Numbered from the stretch's first letter, positions 48,756-59,265 are shown. The stretch: 64,000 nt of DNA from Escherichia coli (GCF_024298765.1 NZ_CP101210.1), one strand, 5' to 3'. Notes: generated by a model from the sequence alone, not told the origin. A program made the numbers and translations.

Positions 48756-50213
48756 GTGTCTGAACTGTCTCAATTATCTCCACAGCCGCTGTGGGATATT
48801 TTTGCCAAAATCTGTTCTATTCCTCACCCGTCCTATCATGAAGAGCAACTCGCTGAATACATTGTTGGTTGGGCAAAAGAGAAAGGTTTCCATGTCGAAC
48901 GCGATCAGGTAGGTAATATCCTGATTCGTAAACCTGCTACCGCAGGTATGGAAAATCGTAAACCGGTCGTCTTGCAGGCCCACCTCGATATGGTGCCGCA
49001 AAAAAACAACGACACCGTGCATGACTTCACTAAAGATCCTATCCAGCCTTATATTGATGGCGAATGGGTTAAAGCACGCGGCACCACGCTGGGTGCGGAT
49101 AACGGCATTGGTATGGCCTCTGCACTGGCGGTTCTGGCTGACGAAAACGTGGTTCACGGCCCGCTGGAAGTGCTGCTGACCATGACCGAAGAAGCCGGTA
49201 TGGACGGTGCTTTTGGCTTACAGAGCAACTGGTTGCAGGCTGATATTCTGATTAACACCGACTCCGAAGAAGAAGGTGAAATCTACATGGGTTGTGCGGG
49301 AGGTATCGACTTCACCTCCAACCTGCATTTAGATCGTGAAGCGGTTCCAGCTGGTTTTGAAACCTTCAAGTTAACCTTAAAAGGTCTGAAAGGCGGTCAC
49401 TCCGGCGGTGAAATCCACGTTGGCCTGGGTAATGCCAACAAACTGCTGGTGCGCTTCCTGGCGGGTCATGCAGAAGAACTGGACCTGCGCCTTATTGATT
49501 TCAACGGCGGCACACTGCGTAACGCCATCCCGCGTGAAGCCTTTGCGACCATTGCTGTCGCAGCTGATAAAGTCGACGCCCTGAAATCTCTGGTGGATAC
49601 CTATCAGGAGATCCTGAAAAACGAACTGGCAGAAAAAGAGAAGAATCTGGCATTGCTGCTGGACTCCGTAGCGAACGACAAAGCTGCATTAACGGCGACA
49701 TCTCGCGATACCTTTATTCGTCTGCTGAACGCAACCCCGAACGGTGTGATCCGCAACTCCGACGTGGCAAAAGGTGTGGTCGAAACCTCCCTGAACGTCG
49801 GTGTGGTGACCATGACCGACAATAACGTAGAAATTCACTGCCTGATCCGTTCTCTGATCGACAGCGGTAAAGACTACGTAGTGAGCATGCTGGATTCACT
49901 GGGTAAACTGGCAGGTGCGAAAACAGAAGCAAAAGGCGCATATCCTGGCTGGCAGCCGGACGCTAACTCTCCGGTAATGCATCTGGTACGTGAAACCTAT
50001 CAGCGTCTGTTCAACAAGACGCCGAACATCCAGATTATCCACGCGGGCCTGGAATGTGGTCTGTTCAAAAAACCGTATCCGGAAATGGACATGGTGTCTA
50101 TCGGGCCAACCATCACCGGTCCACACTCTCCGGATGAGCAAGTTCATATCGAAAGCGTTGGCCATTACTGGACACTGCTGACTGAACTGCTGAAAGAAAT
50201 TCCGGCGAAGTAA
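48756..50213 (+). CDS. pepD: Cytosol non-specific dipeptidase (aminoacyl-histidine dipeptidase) PepD
   Basis: 485 aa M20-family metallopeptidase; GTG start preceded by aggag. Confidence 0.95.
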   Translation: MSELSQLSPQPLWDIFAKICSIPHPSYHEEQLAEYIVGWAKEKGFHVERDQVGNILIRKPATAGMENRKPVVLQAHLDMVPQKNNDTVHDFTKDPIQPYIDGEWVKARGTTLGADNGIGMASALAVLADENVVHGPLEVLLTMTEEAGMDGAFGLQSNWLQADILINTDSEEEGEIYMGCAGGIDFTSNLHLDREAVPAGFETFKLTLKGLKGGHSGGEIHVGLGNANKLLVRFLAGHAEELDLRLIDFNGGTLRNAIPREAFATIAVAADKVDALKSLVDTYQEILKNELAEKEKNLALLLDSVANDKAALTATSRDTFIRLLNATPNGVIRNSDVAKGVVETSLNVGVVTMTDNNVEIHCLIRSLIDSGKDYVVSMLDSLGKLAGAKTEAKGAYPGWQPDANSPVMHLVRETYQRLFNKTPNIQIIHAGLECGLFKKPYPEMDMVSIGPTITGPHSPDEQVHIESVGHYWTLLTELLKEIPAK

Positions 50214-50269: not shown

Positions 50270-50884
50270 TTACCCTTCGATAAAGGCCATCCCTGTAAAC
50301 GTTCGTCGCGGGTTGCCACGTTCAATCTGGTGATGGAACATTCGCCGCTGCGATTTCAGCGCCGCGCTATTTTCCTGTTGCTGTTGTTCCAGCTTCCAGG
50401 CAATCAGTAATCGCGCCAGCCGTTTGTTAGCATGCTGACTGCGCTCTGACTGAACCTTCACGCTAATACCGGATGCCAGATGCGTGGCGCGTACCGCCGA
50501 GTCGGTTTTATTGACATGTTGACCGCCCGGCCCCGACGAACGCAGCGTCTCATAACGGATTGCATCCGATTGTTCCTGCTCATCAGCGGTAAAACGCCCA
50601 ATGCCCAGAAACCAGTTTTTGCGCCCATGATGAGGCCGATACGGACTCGGACAAATCCACTGAATAGTGCCGCACCAGCTTTCGCTTAGAGCCCATGCGT
50701 TATCGCCATCCAGAGAAATCAGCGCCGAACGCAGTGTGTCAGAGTAGCGACCCGTTTCTGTTTCCAGCACCGTTACCGCGACGTCCTGTCGGGTAGCTTC
50801 TTTAATCAGCCTGTCCAGTGCTTTTCTCACTGCGAGACAACATTCTTCCGGCCCCTGAGCAGAGGAGAGTTGTAGCAAGATCAT
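50270..50884 (-). CDS. prfH: Peptide chain release factor homolog PrfH (GGQ motif present), apparently full length
   Basis: Start at [14 protein letters not shown] overlapping the upstream rtcB-like stop (ATGA); contains [15 protein letters not shown]. Confidence 0.85.
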
Positions 50885-52020
50885 CCTTTTTTCCCTCCAC
50901 TGTTTTTGAGCGTCAGCACCGGGCGCAGTCGCGCGACAGGAATAATTAACCCAGCCAGCACCAGACATTGCACCACGCTTTCAGCCGATTTATAGGCTTG
51001 TGGCGCTTCTTCAAAGATGAGTTGTTTATCGCGACAAATTACCCGACTGCCAAGTTCAGTCCGCGAGAGTTGCGTCGCCGTGTATTTCGCTGCCAGACGC
51101 CCTTTACACTCGGTGCGCCCCCATTTACGCCCCGCCCCATGCGCCAGCGAGTGGAGCGTTTTTTCGTTCGCAACAGGTTTAACCAGCCAGGAGTAATCGC
51201 CGCGTGAACCGGGAATAATCACCAGACCGTTGTCATCCGGCGTGGCGCCTTTACGATGCAACCAGCCCTGTTGATCGCCGATTTGGCACGCGCTAACAAA
51301 GTTATGCGCCACATCCAGAACCGGACTTCCGGTGGCCTTAACTTGTTGCATTATGCGCAAAGCGATCAGCTGGCGATTAATACGCGCAAACGCCAGCGCA
51401 TCGTCATGTTCCGCAATATACCGTAGCGCGTCGTCACTGCCTTCAGGCAAACCATGATGCGAAAACGAGGCAATATGCCGCTGTAAAATAGACTGCCCCA
51501 ATCCCCTCGAGCCGCTATGAACCAGCAGTTGCAGATGCTGCGCATCCAGACCAGCCAGTGCAAACAGTTCCGCGTCGATAATTTGATCAATCTGTTGCAG
51601 TTCTACGAAGTGGTTACCGCCACCGATGGAGCCAAGCGAGTTGCGCCACGGATGCTGTGCAAATGCTGACGGCAGGTTTTCCTCCAGCCAGCTTTCTTCA
51701 GCAACGTCATCCAGATCTGATAATCGCTTTTCAAACTTATCGGCGTTGTATTTGCGAGCGAGAATATCTGTTTGCCATAGCGCCATGCCGCAGCCGATAT
51801 CATTGCCGACCAGTGCCGGGTAAAAACGACCAACAGAGAAGAACGCTGCGCCAATCGGGTAGCCGCGTCCGGGATGTAAATCTGGCATCCCCACAACGCG
51901 CTGCATGTTGGGTAAATTTGCCGTGGTGTGTAATTGTTGGATCGCTAAACTCTCGATCCACAGGTCATCAGATGCGATGGTAAATACCGCATCGGATAAG
52001 GGACGAATATATTTGCCCAT
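50881..52020 (-). CDS. rtcB: RtcB-family RNA ligase paralog coupled to prfH
   Basis: Start at [13 protein letters not shown] within ORF 50881..52032; RtcB-like His/Cys-rich motifs ([17 protein letters not shown]). Confidence 0.8.
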
Positions 52021-52209
52021 GTACCATTCCATTTATGAATAAAAATCAGGAAATGGCAGACGAATCCAGGGCAAGAAAAAAGAATTAATCCTGGAAAGGT
52101 CTGCAAAGAGTCATTGATAAAGGATTTGTCATGATTTACCTCCTTGCAGTTTGTGGAATAAGAAAACGCGCACATACTAGACGGGCGTTATTTTCATTGC
52201 AAGCTGGAT

Positions 52210-52662
52210 TTAATGTTGCGGTTTATATCGCATATAAAAATTAGTAAACCACGTTCCCCGGCATTCAACGCGCTGCTGCTTAACTGTCTGAAAACCATAA
52301 CGTTCAAAAAAGGGTTTTGCGGTTATGCTGGCGTCCACCGTAAGTTCGGATTCAGACTTAATCAATGGTTTTAACAAAGCGCTGGCAACTCCGCGTCGGG
52401 TGTATTCCGGTTCAACAAATAACATATCGATATAATGTCCAATGCGGGTAATAAAACCAACCGGTTGTGCATTAATAACTGCAACCCGCACTTGTGATTT
52501 CGCGAGTTTCTCCTTCCAGCGAGATTCGTCAATCTGCGCCCAGGCGGCAATTTGCTGTGGAGAATAGTGCTGACTCGCCGTCATCGTAACAGCTCGAAGG
52601 AAAATAGCGCATAGTTGCTGAAAATCACCAGGCTGATAGTTTCTTATTTGTATGTTATTCAT
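52210..52662 (-). CDS. yafP: GNAT-family N-acetyltransferase YafP
   Basis: 150-aa ORF; start overlaps the dinB stop. Confidence 0.9.
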
Positions 52663-53714
52663 AATCCCAGCACCAGTTGTCTTTCCATTTGAGGGTCAAG
52701 CAACGTCACATGCAGCCCCACCAGTCGCACACCGCGCCCGCCGCGACGTTCATCCCAGGTTTTACGCGCGGTGGCGATTAGATCAGCTTTATTCAGCCGC
52801 GGCCAGACGTGCTCCTGAGTAGTTTGCTGAAAATCGTCGAACTTTAATTTCACCCCCTGGCGAGCAATCAGTAAATCAGGTTTTACCTTTGCCAGACGGC
52901 GTTCAAGTTCAGGATACAGCCGCTCAATAATCGCTTCACATTCAGACCAGTGATGAATATCTTCCGCCATCGTGCGTTCCACGCCGACGGATTTTCGCAA
53001 CCGTTCACTGTTAACGTCGCGCTCGTCAATCCCCTGACTACGCTCCCACAAAATGCGGCCAAATTTGCCAAAGCGTTTAAGCAGAATCACCAGATCACAC
53101 TTTTGCACATCACCGCAGGTCCGCAGCCCCATCGCTTCCAGTTTTGCCGCCGAGACTTTGCCGACGCCGGGAATTTTTGCCAGCGGTAAGGTTTGCAGAA
53201 ATGCCGGAACTTCTGCCGGCGTAATCACAAACTGACCGTTGGGTTTATTCATGTCGGAAGCAATTTTGGCGAGAAACTTGACCGGCGCAACGCCCGCAGA
53301 CGCCGTCAGTTGCAGCTCGTTGAAGATCGTCTGGCGGATTTCCTGGGCGATGAGGGTCGCAGAACCGTGGCAATGGACGCTATCGGTGACATCGAGATAG
53401 GCTTCATCCAGTGATAACGGTTCAATGCGCGAGGTATAGCGCGAGAAAATTTCGCGGATATGATTTGAGGCTTCTTTGTAGGCGTCAAAGCGCCCTGGAA
53501 GCAAGGTGAGATGCGGGCATAATTTGAGCGCCATCCCTGTCGGCATAGCGCTACGTACGCCAAATTTACGCGCGGGATAATTGGCGGTGCTGATCACCCC
53601 CCGTCGTTCGCGGCTGCCGCCAATAGCAATAGGGATATCGCGCAGGGCGGGATTATCGCGCATCTCCACCGCTGCGAAAAAGCAGTCCATATCCACATGA
53701 ATGATTTTACGCAT
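52659..53714 (-). CDS. dinB: DNA polymerase IV (Y-family translesion polymerase)
   Basis: 351 aa [33 protein letters not shown]...; UmuC-type catalytic motifs. Confidence 0.95.
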
Positions 53715-53784
53715 TGCTCACCTCTCAACACTGGTAAAGTATACAGTAATTTCAGGGGTTGAGAAATGCGTAAAGATTCAGCAT

Positions 53785-54500
53785 TTAACGCGCTCGCTGC
53801 GAAAGCACCTGCTGCTTATCCAGCTTTTGCACCAGCGGCTGCACCACTTTATCCCCATGCTGACCAAAGTATTGATACAGCGTATCGGACGCACTTTTGG
53901 TCAGCACCATAATCTCAATGCGCCGGTTGCCCGCGCTTTGCGGATTTTTGGCATCCAGCAACATCTGGTCCGCCATTGCGCTTACCTGCATCACTTTATC
54001 TTCCGGCATTCCGGCCTCTTCCAGCACCCGACGAGCCGAAAGCGCGCGATCGCCCGAAAGGTTCCAGTTGTTGTAGATATTGTTTTTGTAGGCCATCGCA
54101 TCGGTATGCCCGGTAATAATAATTTTGTTATCGAGAGAGTCGAACACCGGCGCAAGCTCCACCAGCAGCGTTTTAAAGAACGGCATAATCTTCGCGCTGC
54201 CGCGTTCAAACATATTGCGGTTCTGGTCGTCTTTAATCAGCACGCGTAATCCCTGGGGAACAATCTCCATCTCCAGATTCGCTTCCATATGCGCATCACG
54301 GGCGATGGTATTGATACTGGTTGCCAGCTCGCCAAGCTCGGTGGCGGATTTCTTCTTCAGCAGCGCCGTTTTCTCGTTGACGTCGCGCGCTTTTTTCTCC
54401 GTCTCTTCCGGCACCGCCACGGTGGCAGGTTTTGGCGGATGAGACGGGCTGATTTTATTTAACGGCGACAGCCCGCCACCATTGAAAATCGACTGCCCGT
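53785..54500 (-). pseudogene. lafU: Remnant of lateral-flagellar (Flag-2) motor protein gene lafU (MotB-like C-terminal OmpA domain)
   Basis: C-terminal OmpA/MotB-like region (...IIITGHTDAMAYKNNIYNNWNLSGDRALSARRVLEEAGMPED...); N-terminal part of ORF 53785..54675 is antisense to the lfhA fragment and not MotB-like. Confidence 0.7.
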
Positions 54501-54544
54501 GCAGCGCGGCGATAATGCTTTCACGCTCGGATTTACTGACGCTG

Positions 54545-56254
54545 TTGACAATCAACTTTATCGTCGTCACCAAGGGGGCCGAGCGTATTTCCGAGGTTTC
54601 TGCCCGCTTTACCCTGGACGCGATGCCCGGCAAACAGATGGCGATTGACGCCGATCTTAACGCCGGGTTGATCAACCAGACGCAGGCGCAAACCCGGCGT
54701 AAAGATGTCGCCAGCGAGGCCGATTTCTACGGCGCAATGGACGGGGCATCAAAATTTGTGCGCGGGGACGCCATCGCCGGGATGATGATTCTGGCAATCA
54801 ACCTGATCGGCGGCGTCTGTATCGGCATCTTCAAATACAACCTGAGCGCCGACGCCGCCTTCCAGCAATATGTGCTGATGACTATCGGCGATGGGCTGGT
54901 GGCGCAAATCCCTTCCCTGCTGCTCTCCACCGCGGCGGCGATTATCGTCACCCGCGTCAGCGATAACGGTGATATCGCCCATGACGTGCGTAATCAGTTG
55001 CTGGCAAGCCCGTCGGTTCTCTACACCGCCACTGGAATTATGTTCGTGCTGGCGGTGGTGCCGGGAATGCCGCATTTCCCGTTCCTGATGTTCAGCGCCC
55101 TGCTTGGTTTTACCGGCTGGCGGATGAGCAAGCGCCCGCAAGCGGCGGAGGCGGAAGAGAAAAGCCTCGAAACGCTAACCCGTACGATGACAGAAACCAG
55201 CGAGCAACAGGTCAGTTGGGAAACTATTCCGCTGATCGAACCTATCAGTTTAAGCCTCGGCTACAAACTGGTGGCGCTGGTGGATAAAGCGCAGGGCAAC
55301 CCGCTCACCCAGCGTATTCGCGGCGTACGTCAGGTGATTTCCGACGGCAACGGCGTGCTGCTGCCGGAGATCCGTATTCGGGAAAACTTCCGCCTCAAGC
55401 CCAGCCAGTACGCCATTTTCATCAACGGCATTAAGGCTGATGAAGCGGATATTCCGGCAGATAAACTGATGGCCCTGCCCTCCAGCGAAACCTACGGCGA
55501 GATAGACGGCGTGCTGGGGAACGACCCGGCGTACGGGATGCCGGTCACCTGGATTCAGCCCGCGCAGAAAGCGAAGGCGCTGAATATGGGGTATCAGGTG
55601 ATCGACAGCGCCAGCGTAATTGCCACCCATGTGAATAAGATTGTGCGCAGCTATATTCCTGATTTGTTTAACTATGACGATATTACTCAGCTGCATAACC
55701 GTTTGTCGTCGATGGCACCGCGACTGGCGGAAGATTTGAGCGCGGCGCTCAATTACAGCCAGTTGCTGAAAGTGTACCGGGCGCTACTGACTGAAGGCGT
55801 TTCCCTGCGCGATATCGTCACCATCGCCACCGTGTTGGTCGCCAGTAGTGCGGTGACTAAAGATCATATTCTGCTGGCGGCCGATGTGCGCCTGGCGCTG
55901 CGGCGCAGCATTACCCATCCGTTCGTTCGCAAGCAGGAGCTGACGGTGTATACGCTGAATAATGAGCTGGAAAATCTGCTGACCAACGTGGTGAATCAGG
56001 CGCAACAGGCCGGCAAAGTGATGCTTGATAGCGTGCCAGTGGATCCGAATATGCTCAACCAGTTCCAGAGCACGATGCCTCAGGTGAAGGAGCAGATGAA
56101 AGCGGCGGGGAAAGATCCGGTGCTGCTGGTGCCGCCGCAGCTGCGCCCCTTGCTGGCGCGCTACGCAAGGTTGTTTGCGCCGGGGCTGCATGTGCTGTCG
56201 TATAACGAAGTGCCGGATGAGCTGGAGTTGAAGATAATGGGGGCGCTGATATAG
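54545..56254 (+). pseudogene. lfhA: 5'-truncated lateral-flagellar FlhA homolog (lfhA), remnant of the Flag-2 cluster
   Basis: FlhA-like from ...INFIVVTKGAERISEVSARFTLDAMPGKQMAIDADLNAG (about FlhA residue 140) to the C-terminus; the first ~20 codons of ORF 54482..56254 are not FlhA-like. Confidence 0.75.
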
Positions 56255-56257
56255 GCA

Positions 56258-56535
56258 TGATAAGACGCGTCTGCGTCGCATCTGGCACCGGTACACAACC
56301 GCCGGATGCGGCGTGAACGCCTTATCCGGCCTACGGGTGAGCACGGTTTTGTCGGCATGATAAGACGCGTGGCGTCGCATCTGGCATCGGCGCACAACCG
56401 CCGGATGCGGCGTGAACGCCTTATCCGGCCTACTGGTGAGTGCGGTTTTGTCGGCATGATAAGACGCGTAGTGTCGCATCAGACACCGGCGCACAACCGC
56501 CAGATGCGGCGTGAACGCCTTATCCGGCCTACAAA
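56258..56535. repeat. REP/BIME cluster: three tandem ~98-bp units of repetitive extragenic palindromes
   Basis: Repeated gcatgataagacgcg...gtcgcatc...gccggatgcggcgtgaacgccttatccggcctac units at ~56258, 56356, 56454. Confidence 0.85.
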
Positions 56536-57287
56536 ATCGTCTCTTCCGTCAAAATCCGTCGCGCGCCTAAAAAATGGTCCTGCCAGAAAGGTTCGGCTAA
56601 CCGACTTACCCGAATGGTTTCCCCGGTGCGCGGTGACTCGATAAACTGACCGTCTCCAAGATATACGCCCATATGGTCGGCTATCTCACGACTGTGGATA
56701 TGGAAAAACAGCAAATCTCCCCGGCGCAGGTCGTTATTCGCCACAATCGTTGCCCGACGGTAGTGGTACATCTCATTGGCCGTGCGCGGGAGCTTAGCCT
56801 CAAGGATCTTGTTGTAGGCATAAAAAACCAACCCGCTACAGTCGAAGCCTTTATCAGGCCGCGTGCCCCCCCAGATATAAGGCTTACCTAGCTGCTGCTC
56901 CAGGCGGTGAATCGCCACTTCGGTGATGTTATGTAGATGGTCGCTGCTTAAGAAATGATTATTCTCCACCAACGCCTGCCAGCGTCTGTCACTCGCCTTG
57001 AGCGGCGCAGGAAACCATTCTGGATGCTGTTTTATCTGCTCCCGATTATGCTGGCGCAGCGCCCTTCTGCTTTTGGCATTGCCTTCCACAATATAGCTGG
57101 CCTGCTTTTTCAGATGGGTTTGGTACTGTTTTAATAAACGCGCACGGTTTTGCATCCGCTGGCGGGCGGCGTAGCTAAAAGAGATATGTGATGTGGTGGC
57201 GCTGGCGAGTAAAGGGAGCAAAACGCATAACGAAAACACGCCTGGATGCAGAAATCTGCCGTGCAAGAACGAAGACATGAAGGACAT
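56529..57287 (-). CDS. yafL: NlpC/P60-family peptidoglycan endopeptidase lipoprotein YafL
   Basis: 252-aa ORF with signal/lipobox-like N-terminus and NlpC/P60 catalytic region (...FDCSGLVFYAY...HMGVYLGDGQFIESP). Confidence 0.85.
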   Translation of the reverse strand: MSFMSSFLHGRFLHPGVFSLCVLLPLLASATTSHISFSYAARQRMQNRARLLKQYQTHLKKQASYIVEGNAKSRRALRQHNREQIKQHPEWFPAPLKASDRRWQALVENNHFLSSDHLHNITEVAIHRLEQQLGKPYIWGGTRPDKGFDCSGLVFYAYNKILEAKLPRTANEMYHYRRATIVANNDLRRGDLLFFHIHSREIADHMGVYLGDGQFIESPRTGETIRVSRLAEPFWQDHFLGARRILTEETIL

Positions 57288-57589
57288 AAACCAGCTGAAT
57301 GAAGGTGAGAATTTTAAAAGACCGGAGGAGTAAACGGGATTATTAATTGCTTATTTGCATATTACTATTGCGGTTTCATAATCTTAGGAAATAAGAAATA
57401 AATCTACAATCCATGCGCTTTTCGGACTCTTGAAAACTGCCCCTGTGCTAAATTTGTAAACCCTGCGCCGACAGGCTTGCGTAAAACTCTTTTGGTGATA
57501 ATGTGAGCCTTCCAAATCCAGACTATTCCGATTTGGGATTCATTTTGCCGTCCTGGCGTGTGTAACCGTTTTATCAAGGAATAAGCAGT

Positions 57590-58330
57590 ATGCGTAAAAT
57601 CGCATTAATTCTTGCGATGTTGTTGATCCCGTGCGTTTCGTTTGCCGGTTTGCTGGGCAGCAGTAGCTCGACCACGCCAGTGAGCAAAGAGTATAAGCAG
57701 CAGTTGATGGGATCCCCTGTCTACATCCAGATCTTCAAGGAAGAACGTACGCTCGATCTCTACGTCAAAATGGGCGAGCAATATCAACTGCTCGACAGCT
57801 ATAAAATCTGTAAATATTCCGGCGGATTAGGGCCAAAACAGCGTCAGGGCGATTTCAAAAGCCCGGAAGGGTTTTATAGCGTCCAGCGTAATCAGTTAAA
57901 ACCAGACAGCCGTTACTACAAAGCGATTAATATTGGATTCCCAAACGCCTATGACCGTGCGCATGGTTATGAAGGGAAATACCTGATGATTCACGGCGAT
58001 TGTGTTTCCATCGGCTGCTACGCGATGACCAATCAGGGTATTGATGAGATCTTCCAGTTCGTTACTGGTGCGCTGGTGTTTGGTCAGCCGAGCGTGCAAG
58101 TGAGTATTTACCCGTTCCGTATGACCGACGCCAATATGAAGCGCCATAAATATTCCAACTTTAAGGACTTCTGGGAGCAACTGAAGCCGGGCTACGACTA
58201 CTTTGAGCAAACCCGTAAGCCACCGACCGTTTCTGTGGTCAATGGCCGTTACGTGGTCAGCAAGCCGTTAAGCCACGAAGTTGTGCAGCCACAACTGGCA
58301 TCAAACTACACGCTCCCCGAGGAAAAATAA
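57590..58330 (+). CDS. yafK: YafK (DpaA), L,D-transpeptidase-fold periplasmic protein
   Basis: 246 aa with signal peptide [19 protein letters not shown] and YkuD-type motif [12 protein letters not shown]. Confidence 0.9.
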
Positions 58331-59068
58331 GCGCCATTCACCTGGCATAATCTTTTGCCAGGTTTCATTGCCCGTCAGCGGCTGTGTCGCAATCACCGTG
58401 ACCACATCATTCGGTGTGGTCTGCGAGCTGAAGTCGATTTCCACATCCTGATCCAGCAACGTTGCCACGCCAAACGGCGCGCGGCGGGTGATCCAGTGTA
58501 AATTAGTCGAGCAATACGCCATTACATAGCGCCCGTCAGAAAGCAGCATGTTGAAAACGCCCTTCTGCCGCAGTTCATCCGCCAGTGAGGCGATATATTT
58601 AAACACTGCCGCCATGTTGCCCGGTGTGCGCGGGTAACGCTGCGTTAATTTATGCAGGAGCCAGCAAAAGGCTTTTTCGCTATCGGTTTCACCGACCGGG
58701 CGGAAGTTGCCGGTTTCCAGTGATTTGTAGCCCGTCAGTTGTCCATTATGGGCATAAGTCCAGTTACGCCCCCATAACTCGCGGGTAAACGGGTGAGTAT
58801 TTTCCAGCGCCACCTCGCCCCGATTAGCCTGGCGAATATGAGCCACCACCGAACAGGATTTTATCGGGTAGTCCTGGACAAGTTTGGCGATGGGGGAATT
58901 AAAGCTGGGTTGCGGATCTTTAAATGTGCGACAGCCTTTACCTTCGTAAAAGGTAATGCCCCAGCCATCTTTATGTGGCCCGGTTCCACCACCACGCTGT
59001 ACAAGTCCGGTGAAACTAAAGCAGATATCGGTAGGGACGTTGGCGCTCATCCCGAGCAATTCGCACAT
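58301..59068 (-). CDS. yafJ: Class II glutamine amidotransferase-like protein YafJ
   Basis: Start at [11 protein letters not shown] (N-terminal nucleophile Cys at position 2) within ORF 58301..59083. Confidence 0.9.
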
Positions 59069-59134
59069 GGGTAACCTCCACAACAGCGGGAGCGCATGGC
59101 CCCCGGCGAAGATTGATTTAAGAATTTTCAGGTC

Positions 59135-59265
59135 GGATGTGGCGTGAACGCATTATTCGGCCTACGGTTCGGGTGCAGATTGTAGGCATGATAAGACGCG
59201 TCAGCGTCGCATCAGGCATCAGAGCACAAATGCCGGATGCGGCGTAAACGCCTTATCTGGCCTAC
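59135..59265. repeat. REP elements between yafJ and gmhA
   Basis: ggcatgataagacgcgtcagcgtcgcatcaggc...gccggatgcggcgtaaacgccttatctggcctac. Confidence 0.8.

Follow-up and report, generated by a model that had tools for sequence, protein, structure and literature searches.

The window analysed here is a stretch of 64,000 nucleotides on one strand of an Escherichia coli genome (GCF_024298765.1 NZ_CP101210.1), in which a compact dinB neighbourhood lies between positions 52,210 and 58,330. Gene calls were taken from the RefSeq annotation of the identical sequence of E. coli CFT073 and converted to window coordinates. The minus strand carries yafP (52210-52662), which encodes a GNAT N-acetyltransferase and is the last gene of a two-gene dinB operon, dinB itself (52659-53714), which encodes DNA polymerase IV, and lafU (53785-54570); these are followed on the plus strand by an N-terminally truncated flhA/lfhA′ fragment (54536-56254). 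Three tandem BIME units, each comprising a Y REP and an inverted Z2 REP (56254-56532, minus strand; from the repeat search, patterns and Rfam), then lead to yafL (56529-57278, minus strand), the gene of an NlpC/P60 (C40) peptidase with a signal peptide of a type called here CFT-type, and, across a spacer of 311 bp (57279-57589), to dpaA (yafK; 57590-58330, plus strand). The annotated order in K-12 is dpaA-yafQ-dinJ-yafL-rayT-lfhA′-lafU′-dinB-yafN-yafO-yafP, as the original prediction had rightly given it. The proteins common to both are similar, with amino acid identities to K-12 of 99.7% for DinB, 94.7% for YafP and 99.6% for DpaA. In the window, as in K-12, lafU and lfhA′ between dinB and yafL are the scar of a deletion of the Flag-2 lateral-flagella cluster; at this site the Flag-2 genes are still intact in ST131 and NC101, which are B2 relatives.

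A 10-kb region of the window is 100% identical to the corresponding sequence of E. coli CFT073, Nissle 1917, ATCC 25922 and others, the uropathogenic CFT073 and the probiotic Nissle 1917 being phylogroup B2 strains of ST73. The band of at least 99% identity holds 193-197 records (10-kb and 6.1-kb queries), a number that is an estimate for the full haplotype with all three absences; coverage by these queries does not separate the haplotypes, as REP hits use up the limit of 40 pieces in most records and neighbouring pieces are merged. It is very likely that the region is an ordinary, published B2/ST73 haplotype of the CFT073 type, dpaA-yafL-[Flag-2 scar]-dinB-yafP, in which three modules of K-12 are missing for separate reasons.

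At the dinB-yafP junction, the stop codon of dinB overlaps the start codon of yafP by 4 nt, as had been noticed at the outset (ATGA, 52659-52662, minus strand; CTGGGATTATGAATAAC). The overlap is part of a single copy of the 7-bp sequence ATTATGA (52659-52665, minus strand), located from the sequence and from the overlapping ends of BLAST segments. In K-12, two direct copies of ATTATGA bracket a segment of 752 bp (251954-252705) that has no counterpart in the window by BLAST and contains the operator region of yafN together with the genes of the YafNO type II toxin-antitoxin (TA) pair, yafN (antitoxin) and yafO (toxin); yafP comes after yafO there, whereas it is overlapped with dinB in the window. 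Recombination between the two copies would give exactly the junction of the window, GGATTATGAATAAC. The dinB promoter, the LexA box and the position of the operon are shared with K-12, and dinB and yafP have about 95% nucleotide identity. The LexA (SOS) box upstream of dinB, CTGTATACTTTACCAG (53731-53746, minus strand), identified as that of dinB by what is known of the promoter in K-12, is intact, and its core is as in K-12 by pattern scan and side-by-side sequence. Because the stop and start codons overlap under the dinB promoter, yafP would be the second cistron of the operon, tightly coupled to the first.

The window thus has same-strand adjacency of dinB and yafP with ATGA, the LexA box and no yafN or yafO, which makes it a two-gene operon of the CFT073 type; it does not differ in structure from the operon described in CFT073 itself (Gutierrez, Elez, Clermont, Denamur and Matic, Nucleic Acids Res 2011; PMC3105422), and its sequence is 100% identical. 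The direct repeat is, however, 7 bp (ATTATGA) rather than the 4 bp of that study. The missing modules had been expected to matter for regulation of the dinB operon. This is not borne out: of the three modules, yafNO alone is part of the operon, the LexA box is intact, and YafP-YFP in CFT073 is still SOS-inducible, the regulation having been concluded to appear similar to that in K-12 (PMC3105422).

The gap between yafL and lfhA′, 274 bp in length, is filled entirely by the three-unit REP/BIME array that had been predicted at the site of rayT. Its units are of about 99 bp each (3 copies of 99 nt in the repeat search). Pattern scans placed Y-type REPs at 56301-56334, 56400-56433 and 56499-56532 and Z2-type REPs at 56354-56385 and 56453-56484, with 0 hits expected by chance in either case, and a third Z2 REP was read from the sequence at about 56254-56286, within a match to the Rfam family naRNA4. 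There are three such matches (RF02564; 64.8, 62.7 and 56.7 bits, the gathering threshold being 59.5 and the third match just below it), which point to BIME-type sequence and structure and are no proof that an RNA is made here. In K-12 the corresponding site harbors the REPtron, in which rayT/tnpA_REP has BIMEs on its flanks and lies between yafL and lfhA/fhiA (Nunvar 2010; Ton-Hoang et al., Nucleic Acids Res 2012, PMC3333891). The window shares with it the locus and the flanking Y/Z2 BIME units, but K-12 247542-248134, the rayT gene for the defining Y1 HUH transposase, has no counterpart between yafL and lfhA, leaving an empty REPtron. In rayT-positive strains the gene has a Z2 REP on either side, the two in direct repeat, as alignments to K-12 and ST131 show, and each of the four outgroup Escherichia lineages carries it. 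In our reading, rayT was excised between these Z2 REPs, either by REP-REP recombination or slippage or through catalysis by RayT itself, which would have left one hybrid Z2 REP and a BIME array uninterrupted for three units. The gene was already reported as 'precisely excised (e.g. CFT073)', a B2 example in which the BIMEs are retained (Ton-Hoang 2012; PMC3333891). In the B1 solution, by contrast, hicAB replaces rayT together with the BIMEs, which the window keeps. Park et al. (2021) say nothing on which E. coli are without rayT.

Between yafL and dpaA, the gap that had been put at about 300 bp is 311 bp long, as against 906 bp in K-12. The flanking genes and 140 bp upstream of dpaA are common to the two, and the window lacks adjacent dinJ and yafQ between dpaA and yafL and, with them, the DinJ-YafQ type II TA system. 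The difference is no simple indel: an allele-specific segment of 243 bp (57207-57449, with breakpoints from BLAST and MAFFT), made up of 72 nt at the 5′ end of yafL and part of the spacer, takes the place of 838 bp in K-12 (245946-246783). Of YafL residues 1-24, only 5 are shared with K-12 YafL, whereas all 25 of residues 25-49 are identical, so that the signal peptide is changed and mature YafL is unchanged at the breakpoint. A small TA pair hidden in the 311-bp spacer was also considered and rejected, as tblastn gave no homology, the room is too small for two ORFs, and indels between species break the frames.

Outside this haplotype, ST131 has a TA-free spacer of the same length, and absence of dinJ-yafQ together with the CFT-type yafL 5′ end is found in ST131, E. 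albertii, Escherichia sp. E1V33 and a cryptic Escherichia lineage (L004). The spacer is colinear with those of E. albertii and two cryptic Escherichia lineages, at a mean column identity of 91%. Citrobacter species that have yafL carry no dinJ-yafQ, and their yafL-dpaA spacers are 262-421 bp. The state taken as ancestral, without the TA module, occurs in three of the four outgroups and in Citrobacter. The exception is Escherichia sp. MOD1-EC7003 (L006), which has dinJ-yafQ and the K-12-type yafL 5′ end; since it carries the K-12 allele, the dinJ-yafQ polymorphism crosses species lines. In Gonzalez-Alba 2019, yafQ-dinJ is scored as acquired both by the E/B1/A lineage and by phylogroup F. It is probable that dinJ-yafQ was never at this site in the lineage of the window and that the TA-free spacer with its yafL 5′ end is the genus-ancestral allele; the K-12 allele would then be the alternative 838-bp segment, which brought in dinJ-yafQ and, at the same time, a yafL promoter and signal peptide of divergent sequence.

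A tblastn search of all 64 kb (E ≤ 10) with YafN, YafO, DinJ, YafQ and RayT of K-12 gave chance-level matches only, the best at E = 0.29. Hence no TA genes are hidden in the window as small ORFs, and this search and the K-12 comparison bear out that the window is without yafNO, dinJ-yafQ and rayT, as the original prediction had it. In 5,426 complete E. coli genomes, those carrying yafNO (2847) and those with the direct dinB-yafP junction (2566) together make up 5413, and those carrying dinJ-yafQ (3340) and those with the alternative 243-bp segment of the window (2084) make up 5424. As carriers and genomes with the empty allele are almost exact complements, yafNO and dinJ-yafQ appear to be essentially single-locus modules, and absence of the TA modules from the whole genome is supported indirectly by these counts. 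Papers on CFT073 itself are in line with this (PMC3105422; PMC3333891; Norton and Mulvey); the text of Norton and Mulvey names neither dinJ-yafQ nor yafNO.

In the same 5,426 genomes, the direct dinB-yafP junction occurs in 47%, which matches the 40-50% given in PMC3105422; the TA-free yafL-dpaA allele occurs in 38%, with dinJ-yafQ in 62%, and rayT is missing from 34%. The phylogroup distribution of yafQ and yafO has been described (Gonzalez-Alba 2019; Singh 2023), as has that of dinJ-yafQ, with none in B2 (PMC6896753; PMC10790755; PMC4128348). The three absences are common alleles that are already published, and the arrangement is natural variation of a common kind rather than something new. 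The absences had been ascribed to this strain background: they stand within the window, but they are not a peculiarity of one background, each being a very common allele. What the analysis adds is a likely cause at each of the three sites. The anatomy, breakpoints, population frequencies and outgroup states can be read directly from the sequences, and from them we infer the direction of events and the molecular mechanisms, which probably amount to three different histories: two losses and one module, dinJ-yafQ, that was never gained.

For yafNO, the most likely cause would be a microhomology deletion between the ATTATGA copies of a four-gene ancestor, which would have fused dinB and yafP by the ATGA overlap and left the LexA-controlled dinB promoter unchanged. 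Both copies of ATTATGA are present in all four-gene forms examined in Escherichia, namely K-12, the cryptic lineage L004 and B2 strain NC101. The comparison with NC101 shows 453 of 453 nt of yafP and 189 of 189 nt of the downstream spacer to be identical to the window, with about 5% difference in the 3′ half of dinB (alignment columns 453-1014). The dinB 3′ half of NC101 is therefore a different allele, so that a recombination tract ends at or near the module, and the comparison fits either direction of change. The same conclusion of loss was reached by Gutierrez 2011, with four genes in E. fergusonii (PMC3105422), a species outside the 80 loci listed here whose state is taken from that paper. 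E. albertii (L005) is left out of the dinB-yafP comparison because its contig, upstream of lafU, runs into genes for phage tails and stops; the L003 and L006 loci are interrupted by a contig end or by Flag-2.

As the two-gene state is ancestral at the level of the family, the E. coli two-gene form could instead be a retained empty site: the junction would be the ancestral state, a yafN-yafO cassette would have been inserted elsewhere and created the 7-bp duplication, and nothing would have been lost here. In Klebsiella, Raoultella, Kluyvera, Pseudocitrobacter faecalis and several Citrobacter, dinB and yafP are indeed adjacent without yafNO; yafNO is patchy, being at the junction in Pseudocitrobacter vendiensis and missing in its sister species; the 7-bp direct repeat around yafNO in E. 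coli looks like a target-site duplication; and between NC101 and K-12 yafNO differs at 14 of 755 positions and is more conserved than the flanking yafP (24 of 453). However, the adjacent genes in other genera are joined by TAA or TAG, 2-5 nt and ATG, not by an ATGA overlap, whereas the TGA stop of the E. coli two-gene form is common to every four-gene form, and thus the E. coli two-gene junction looks derived. Moreover, no duplication flanks yafNO in P. vendiensis, and transposition with target-site duplication is not known for type II TA pairs. Four genes are also found in the cryptic lineage L004 and in E. fergusonii (PMC3105422). On balance we consider a retained empty site unlikely and prefer deletion. 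Less probable still is the reading of yafN-yafO as a cassette that has repeatedly entered and left the dinB-yafP junction across Enterobacteriaceae, with dinJ-yafQ read similarly because its allele crosses species lines along with the swapped YafL signal peptide; if it were true, the window would present an unoccupied attachment-like site in place of the scar of a deletion, and an SOS-controlled toxin would have been captured next to dinB recurrently, possibly under selection.

At the yafL-dpaA site, the module could also have been ancestral and lost in B2, the 243-bp segment being what remained after deletion and divergence. The L006 lineage, which is not E. coli, with its module and K-12-type yafL 5′ end, the presence of dinJ-yafQ in the majority of E. 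coli genomes, and the Citrobacter YafL signal peptide, which weakly resembles both the K-12 and the CFT ones, would fit such a loss. It is nonetheless unlikely, as the segment contains no remnant of dinJ or yafQ by tblastn and can be aligned colinearly from end to end with E. albertii and two further outgroup lineages, the module is missing from the Citrobacter spacers as well, and the published reconstruction has it as a gain (Gonzalez-Alba 2019). Finally, the compact arrangement might be an assembly artefact, such as a collapse of REP repeats or a mis-join, given that the BIME array at the rayT site is repetitive, a type of sequence that assemblers can collapse. This is extremely improbable: at least 30 independent complete genomes from various laboratories and platforms share the 10-kb region at 100% identity, 193 records match at 99% or more, the structure of the dinB-yafP junction was verified by PCR and sequencing (PMC3105422), and the rayT site has been described (PMC3333891).

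The locus carries little weight as a discovery, since its structure, frequency and main interpretation are published, partly for CFT073. It does indicate that K-12 is not the reference state here: about half of E. coli genomes have the two-gene dinB operon, and dinJ-yafQ or rayT is missing in more than a third. Because these states are common, results obtained in K-12 with YafNO, DinJ-YafQ and RayT are not transferable to B2 pathogens such as CFT073 or to the probiotic Nissle 1917; this concerns persistence and SOS-linked toxicity for YafNO and DinJ-YafQ and RayT-driven REP dynamics for RayT. The small additions of this analysis sharpen the picture of how the locus arose and leave its biology unchanged: the yafL-dpaA spacer without TA genes is probably the ancestral one in the genus; the YafL signal peptide is swapped in the K-12 allele; in extension of PMC3105422, other genera of Enterobacteriaceae also have a two-gene operon, whose junction differs and has no overlap; and yafNO is present at the dinB-yafP site in a second genus, in P. 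vendiensis. In both Escherichia and P. vendiensis, yafNO lies directly after the dinB stop codon.

Over a 10-kb slice around the site, the sequence is 100% identical to CFT073, Nissle 1917, ATCC 25922 and a large number of further complete genomes of B2/ST73-like type. The annotation that RefSeq gives for this part of CFT073 was converted to window numbering: pepD (48756-50213, + strand), prfH (50270-50884, - strand), rtcB (50881-52020, -), yafP (52210-52662, -), dinB (52659-53714, -), lafU (53785-54570, -), an N-terminally truncated flhA/lfhA fragment (54536-56254, +), yafL (56529-57278, -), dpaA, also called yafK (57590-58330, +), and yafJ (58301-59068, -). The K-12 order assumed in the original prediction is right: the MG1655 record reads dpaA-yafQ-dinJ-yafL-rayT-lfhA'-lafU'-dinB-yafN-yafO-yafP. 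When the 64-kb window was searched with the K-12 YafN, YafO, DinJ, YafQ and RayT proteins (tblastn, E<=10), no convincing match was found (best E = 0.29). The predicted absence of all five is thus borne out for the window, and no small toxin-antitoxin (TA) ORFs lie below the track threshold. Each of the three absences is in published work, and therefore the finding is already known in all three parts. What is added here is the direction of change at the dinB-yafP, rayT and dinJ-yafQ sites from outgroup comparison, in which species-representative genomes were scanned with DpaA, K-12 and CFT073 proteins were mapped onto 80 loci and the junctions were then read.

The dinB stop overlaps the yafP start by four bases, ATGA (52659-52662), as predicted. 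Alignment to K-12 leaves 752 bp of K-12 (251954-252705), containing yafNO, without counterpart in the window. In K-12 this segment is flanked by a 7-bp direct repeat, GGATTATGA followed by TGTATAC at the dinB stop and ATATTATGA followed by ATAAC at the yafP start; one copy stands at the window junction (GGATTATGAATAAC), which is the exact product predicted for recombination between the two ATTATGA copies. This match favours a secondary loss of yafNO within Escherichia, the module having presumably been inserted earlier into an ancestral two-gene operon. CFT073 was in fact picked precisely for its two-gene dinB-yafP operon by Gutierrez et al. (2011, PMC3105422), who described the ATGA overlap, found the two-gene operon in 40-50% of strains and four genes in E. 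fergusonii, and proposed that the module was deleted between two ATGA sequences, at least three times independently. YafO prevalence is low in ST73 and ST131 (Singh et al., 2023).

Alternatively, yafNO could be a cassette captured recurrently at the dinB-yafP junction, with an empty site in the window. Adjacent dinB-yafP without yafNO is found in Klebsiella, Raoultella, Kluyvera, Pseudocitrobacter faecalis and some Citrobacter, and Pseudocitrobacter vendiensis has the four-gene form at the same site (YafN 80% and YafO 85% amino acid identity to K-12), its sister species being without it; either yafNO moved between genera into this one junction, or it is old and was lost many times. The junction in those yafNO-free genera reads TAA or TAG, then 2-5 nt, then ATG; among the junctions examined, the dinB stop is TGA in all four-gene forms, and also in the E. 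coli two-gene form. One cryptic Escherichia lineage (L004, ~94% nucleotide identity to E. coli) has four genes, and no flanking duplication is seen in the junction sequence at the P. vendiensis site. Comparison of the window with the four-gene B2 strain NC101 (yafP 453/453 identical, downstream spacer 189/189, dinB 3' half ~5% different) fits either direction. We consider recurrent capture unlikely, and secondary loss through the ATTATGA repeat is preferred.

The yafN-yafO genes of P. vendiensis (locus L059, 1418-2109) lie between dinB and yafP directly after the TGA stop, with the TGTATAC... palindrome also seen in E. coli; its sister species (L056, L057) read dinB-TAA-NN-ATG-yafP. Mobile DNA between lafU and the dinB position in NC101 (L083 1926-7335; recombinase genes, a phage baseplate fragment) and phage tail-like ORFs there in E. 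albertii (L005 31-2763) suggest a hotspot for integration immediately upstream of dinB. Both rtcB and prfH are intact in the window (50270-52020). A deletion of 1,018 bp in K-12 (window 50796-51813) has left ykfJ and prfH there as pseudogenes, so that K-12 holds the degraded version of these two genes. K-12 also has 129 bp extra in the yafP-ykfJ interval (253334-253462), missing at window 52036-52039.

The yafL-dpaA gap, rightly described as short, is 311 bp in the window versus 906 bp in K-12. At dinJ-yafQ the two differ by more than an indel: the place of K-12 245946-246783 (838 bp) is taken in the window by 243 bp (57207-57449). The K-12 segment starts 15 bp past the yafQ stop, takes in yafQ, dinJ and their divergent promoter region, and extends over the first 72 nt of yafL. 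Because the replaced segment reaches into the yafL 5' end, the two YafL proteins share 5/24 of the first residues and then 25/25. The breakpoint falls at an Ala-Ser-Ala motif, a probable signal-peptidase site; if so, mature YafL would be unchanged. E. albertii, Escherichia sp. E1V33, the cryptic lineage L004 and ST131 have no dinJ-yafQ and a CFT-type yafL 5' end, with spacers colinear with that of the window (91% mean column identity in the alignment). Citrobacter species with yafL have no dinJ-yafQ, and among the lineages sampled the K-12 allele occurs outside E. coli only in Escherichia sp. MOD1-EC7003. With this sole exception in the outgroups, the genus most likely started out in the TA-free state, the K-12 allele being a derived or imported segment found in more than one species. 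In published surveys, yafQ-dinJ is restricted to the E/B1/A lineage and to phylogroup F, where it is scored as acquired (Gonzalez-Alba et al., 2019), YafQ is found chiefly in phylogroups A, B1 and F (Singh et al., 2023), and yafQ-dinJ expression was seen only in A/B1 isolates (Bielecki et al., 2014).

Two strongly divergent YafL signal-peptide alleles (window 57207-57278, K-12 246712-246783) are strictly linked with dinJ-yafQ absence and presence, non-coli Escherichia included. A ~70-bp spacer block (window ~57335-57404), invariant from CFT073 to E. albertii in the alignment, is missing from the K-12 allele; a sigma-70-like match lies inside it (57354-57382, + strand), facing dpaA.

At the rayT position, the three-unit REP/BIME array was read correctly: the 274 bp from the lfhA' stop to the yafL stop are wholly filled by three tandem ~99-bp BIME units, each a Y REP plus an inverted Z2 REP. 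A pattern scan located Y-type REPs at 56301-56334, 56400-56433 and 56499-56532 (0 expected by chance) and Z2-type REPs at 56354-56385 and 56453-56484; a third Z2 REP, read from the sequence at ~56254-56286, has a loop one base longer. The Rfam naRNA4 model, built on a BIME, gives the units 64.8, 62.7 and 56.7 bits, the third below the gathering score of 59.5. For rayT, 593 bp of K-12 (247542-248134) are missing from the window. Alignment with K-12 and with the B2 strain ST131 shows rayT flanked there by a pair of Z2 REPs in direct repeat; at that point the window has one Z2, the array running on. By protein mapping to loci, rayT is present in 4/4 non-coli Escherichia lineages sampled and not in Citrobacter, and the pattern fits an early acquisition followed by excision in the window lineage. 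Ton-Hoang et al. (2012, PMC3333891) found tnpA_REP (rayT) between yafL and fhiA in 74/110 genomes, gave CFT073 as an example of precise excision with BIMEs kept and reported hicAB at this site instead in B1 strains. Another Y/Z2-type BIME lies between yafJ and lpcA (gmhA) at window 59134-59265, with 87-90% identity to the K-12 rayT-site BIMEs.

The original prediction thus stands in every element of its observation, including what is absent, but it overstated the consequence for dinB-operon regulation. Upstream of dinB, the LexA box (CTGTATACTTTACCAG, 53731-53746) shares its core with that of K-12, and YafP-YFP stays SOS-inducible in CFT073 (Gutierrez et al., 2011, PMC3105422), so that a materially changed regulation has no support. 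Clear exceptions are the loss of the yafN operator and promoter and the overlap that yafP now has with dinB. As for dinJ-yafQ and rayT, they are transcribed separately and lie beyond the scar of the Flag-2 (lateral-flagella) cluster.

Among 5,426 complete E. coli genomes, yafNO is present in 2,847 and the direct dinB-yafP junction in 2,566 (sum 5,413), dinJ-yafQ in 3,340 and the window's 243-bp segment in 2,084 (5,424), and rayT in 3,575, with 1,851 lacking it (5,426). As a proxy for a genome-wide check, this near-perfect complementarity and the median of one place per genome indicate that a module missing from its usual site is not carried at another site in the same strain. The whole 6.1-kb haplotype occurs at >=99% identity in ~197 records; the triple absence is therefore limited to one sub-lineage of B2, each single absence being very common. 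Norton and Mulvey (2012) report that only 7/16 MG1655 type II TA loci exist in CFT073. Other B2 strains differ from the window: ST131, itself without dinJ-yafQ, has rayT and an intact Flag-2 cluster, and NC101 has yafNO and Flag-2. The window carries the lafU/lfhA' scar of Flag-2 (53785-56254), as does K-12, and the genes are intact (flhA, flhB, fliR..., motA, full-length lafU) in ST131 (L084 7218-13447) and NC101 (L083 1-1774), so that B2 strains vary in the Flag-2 deletion as well.
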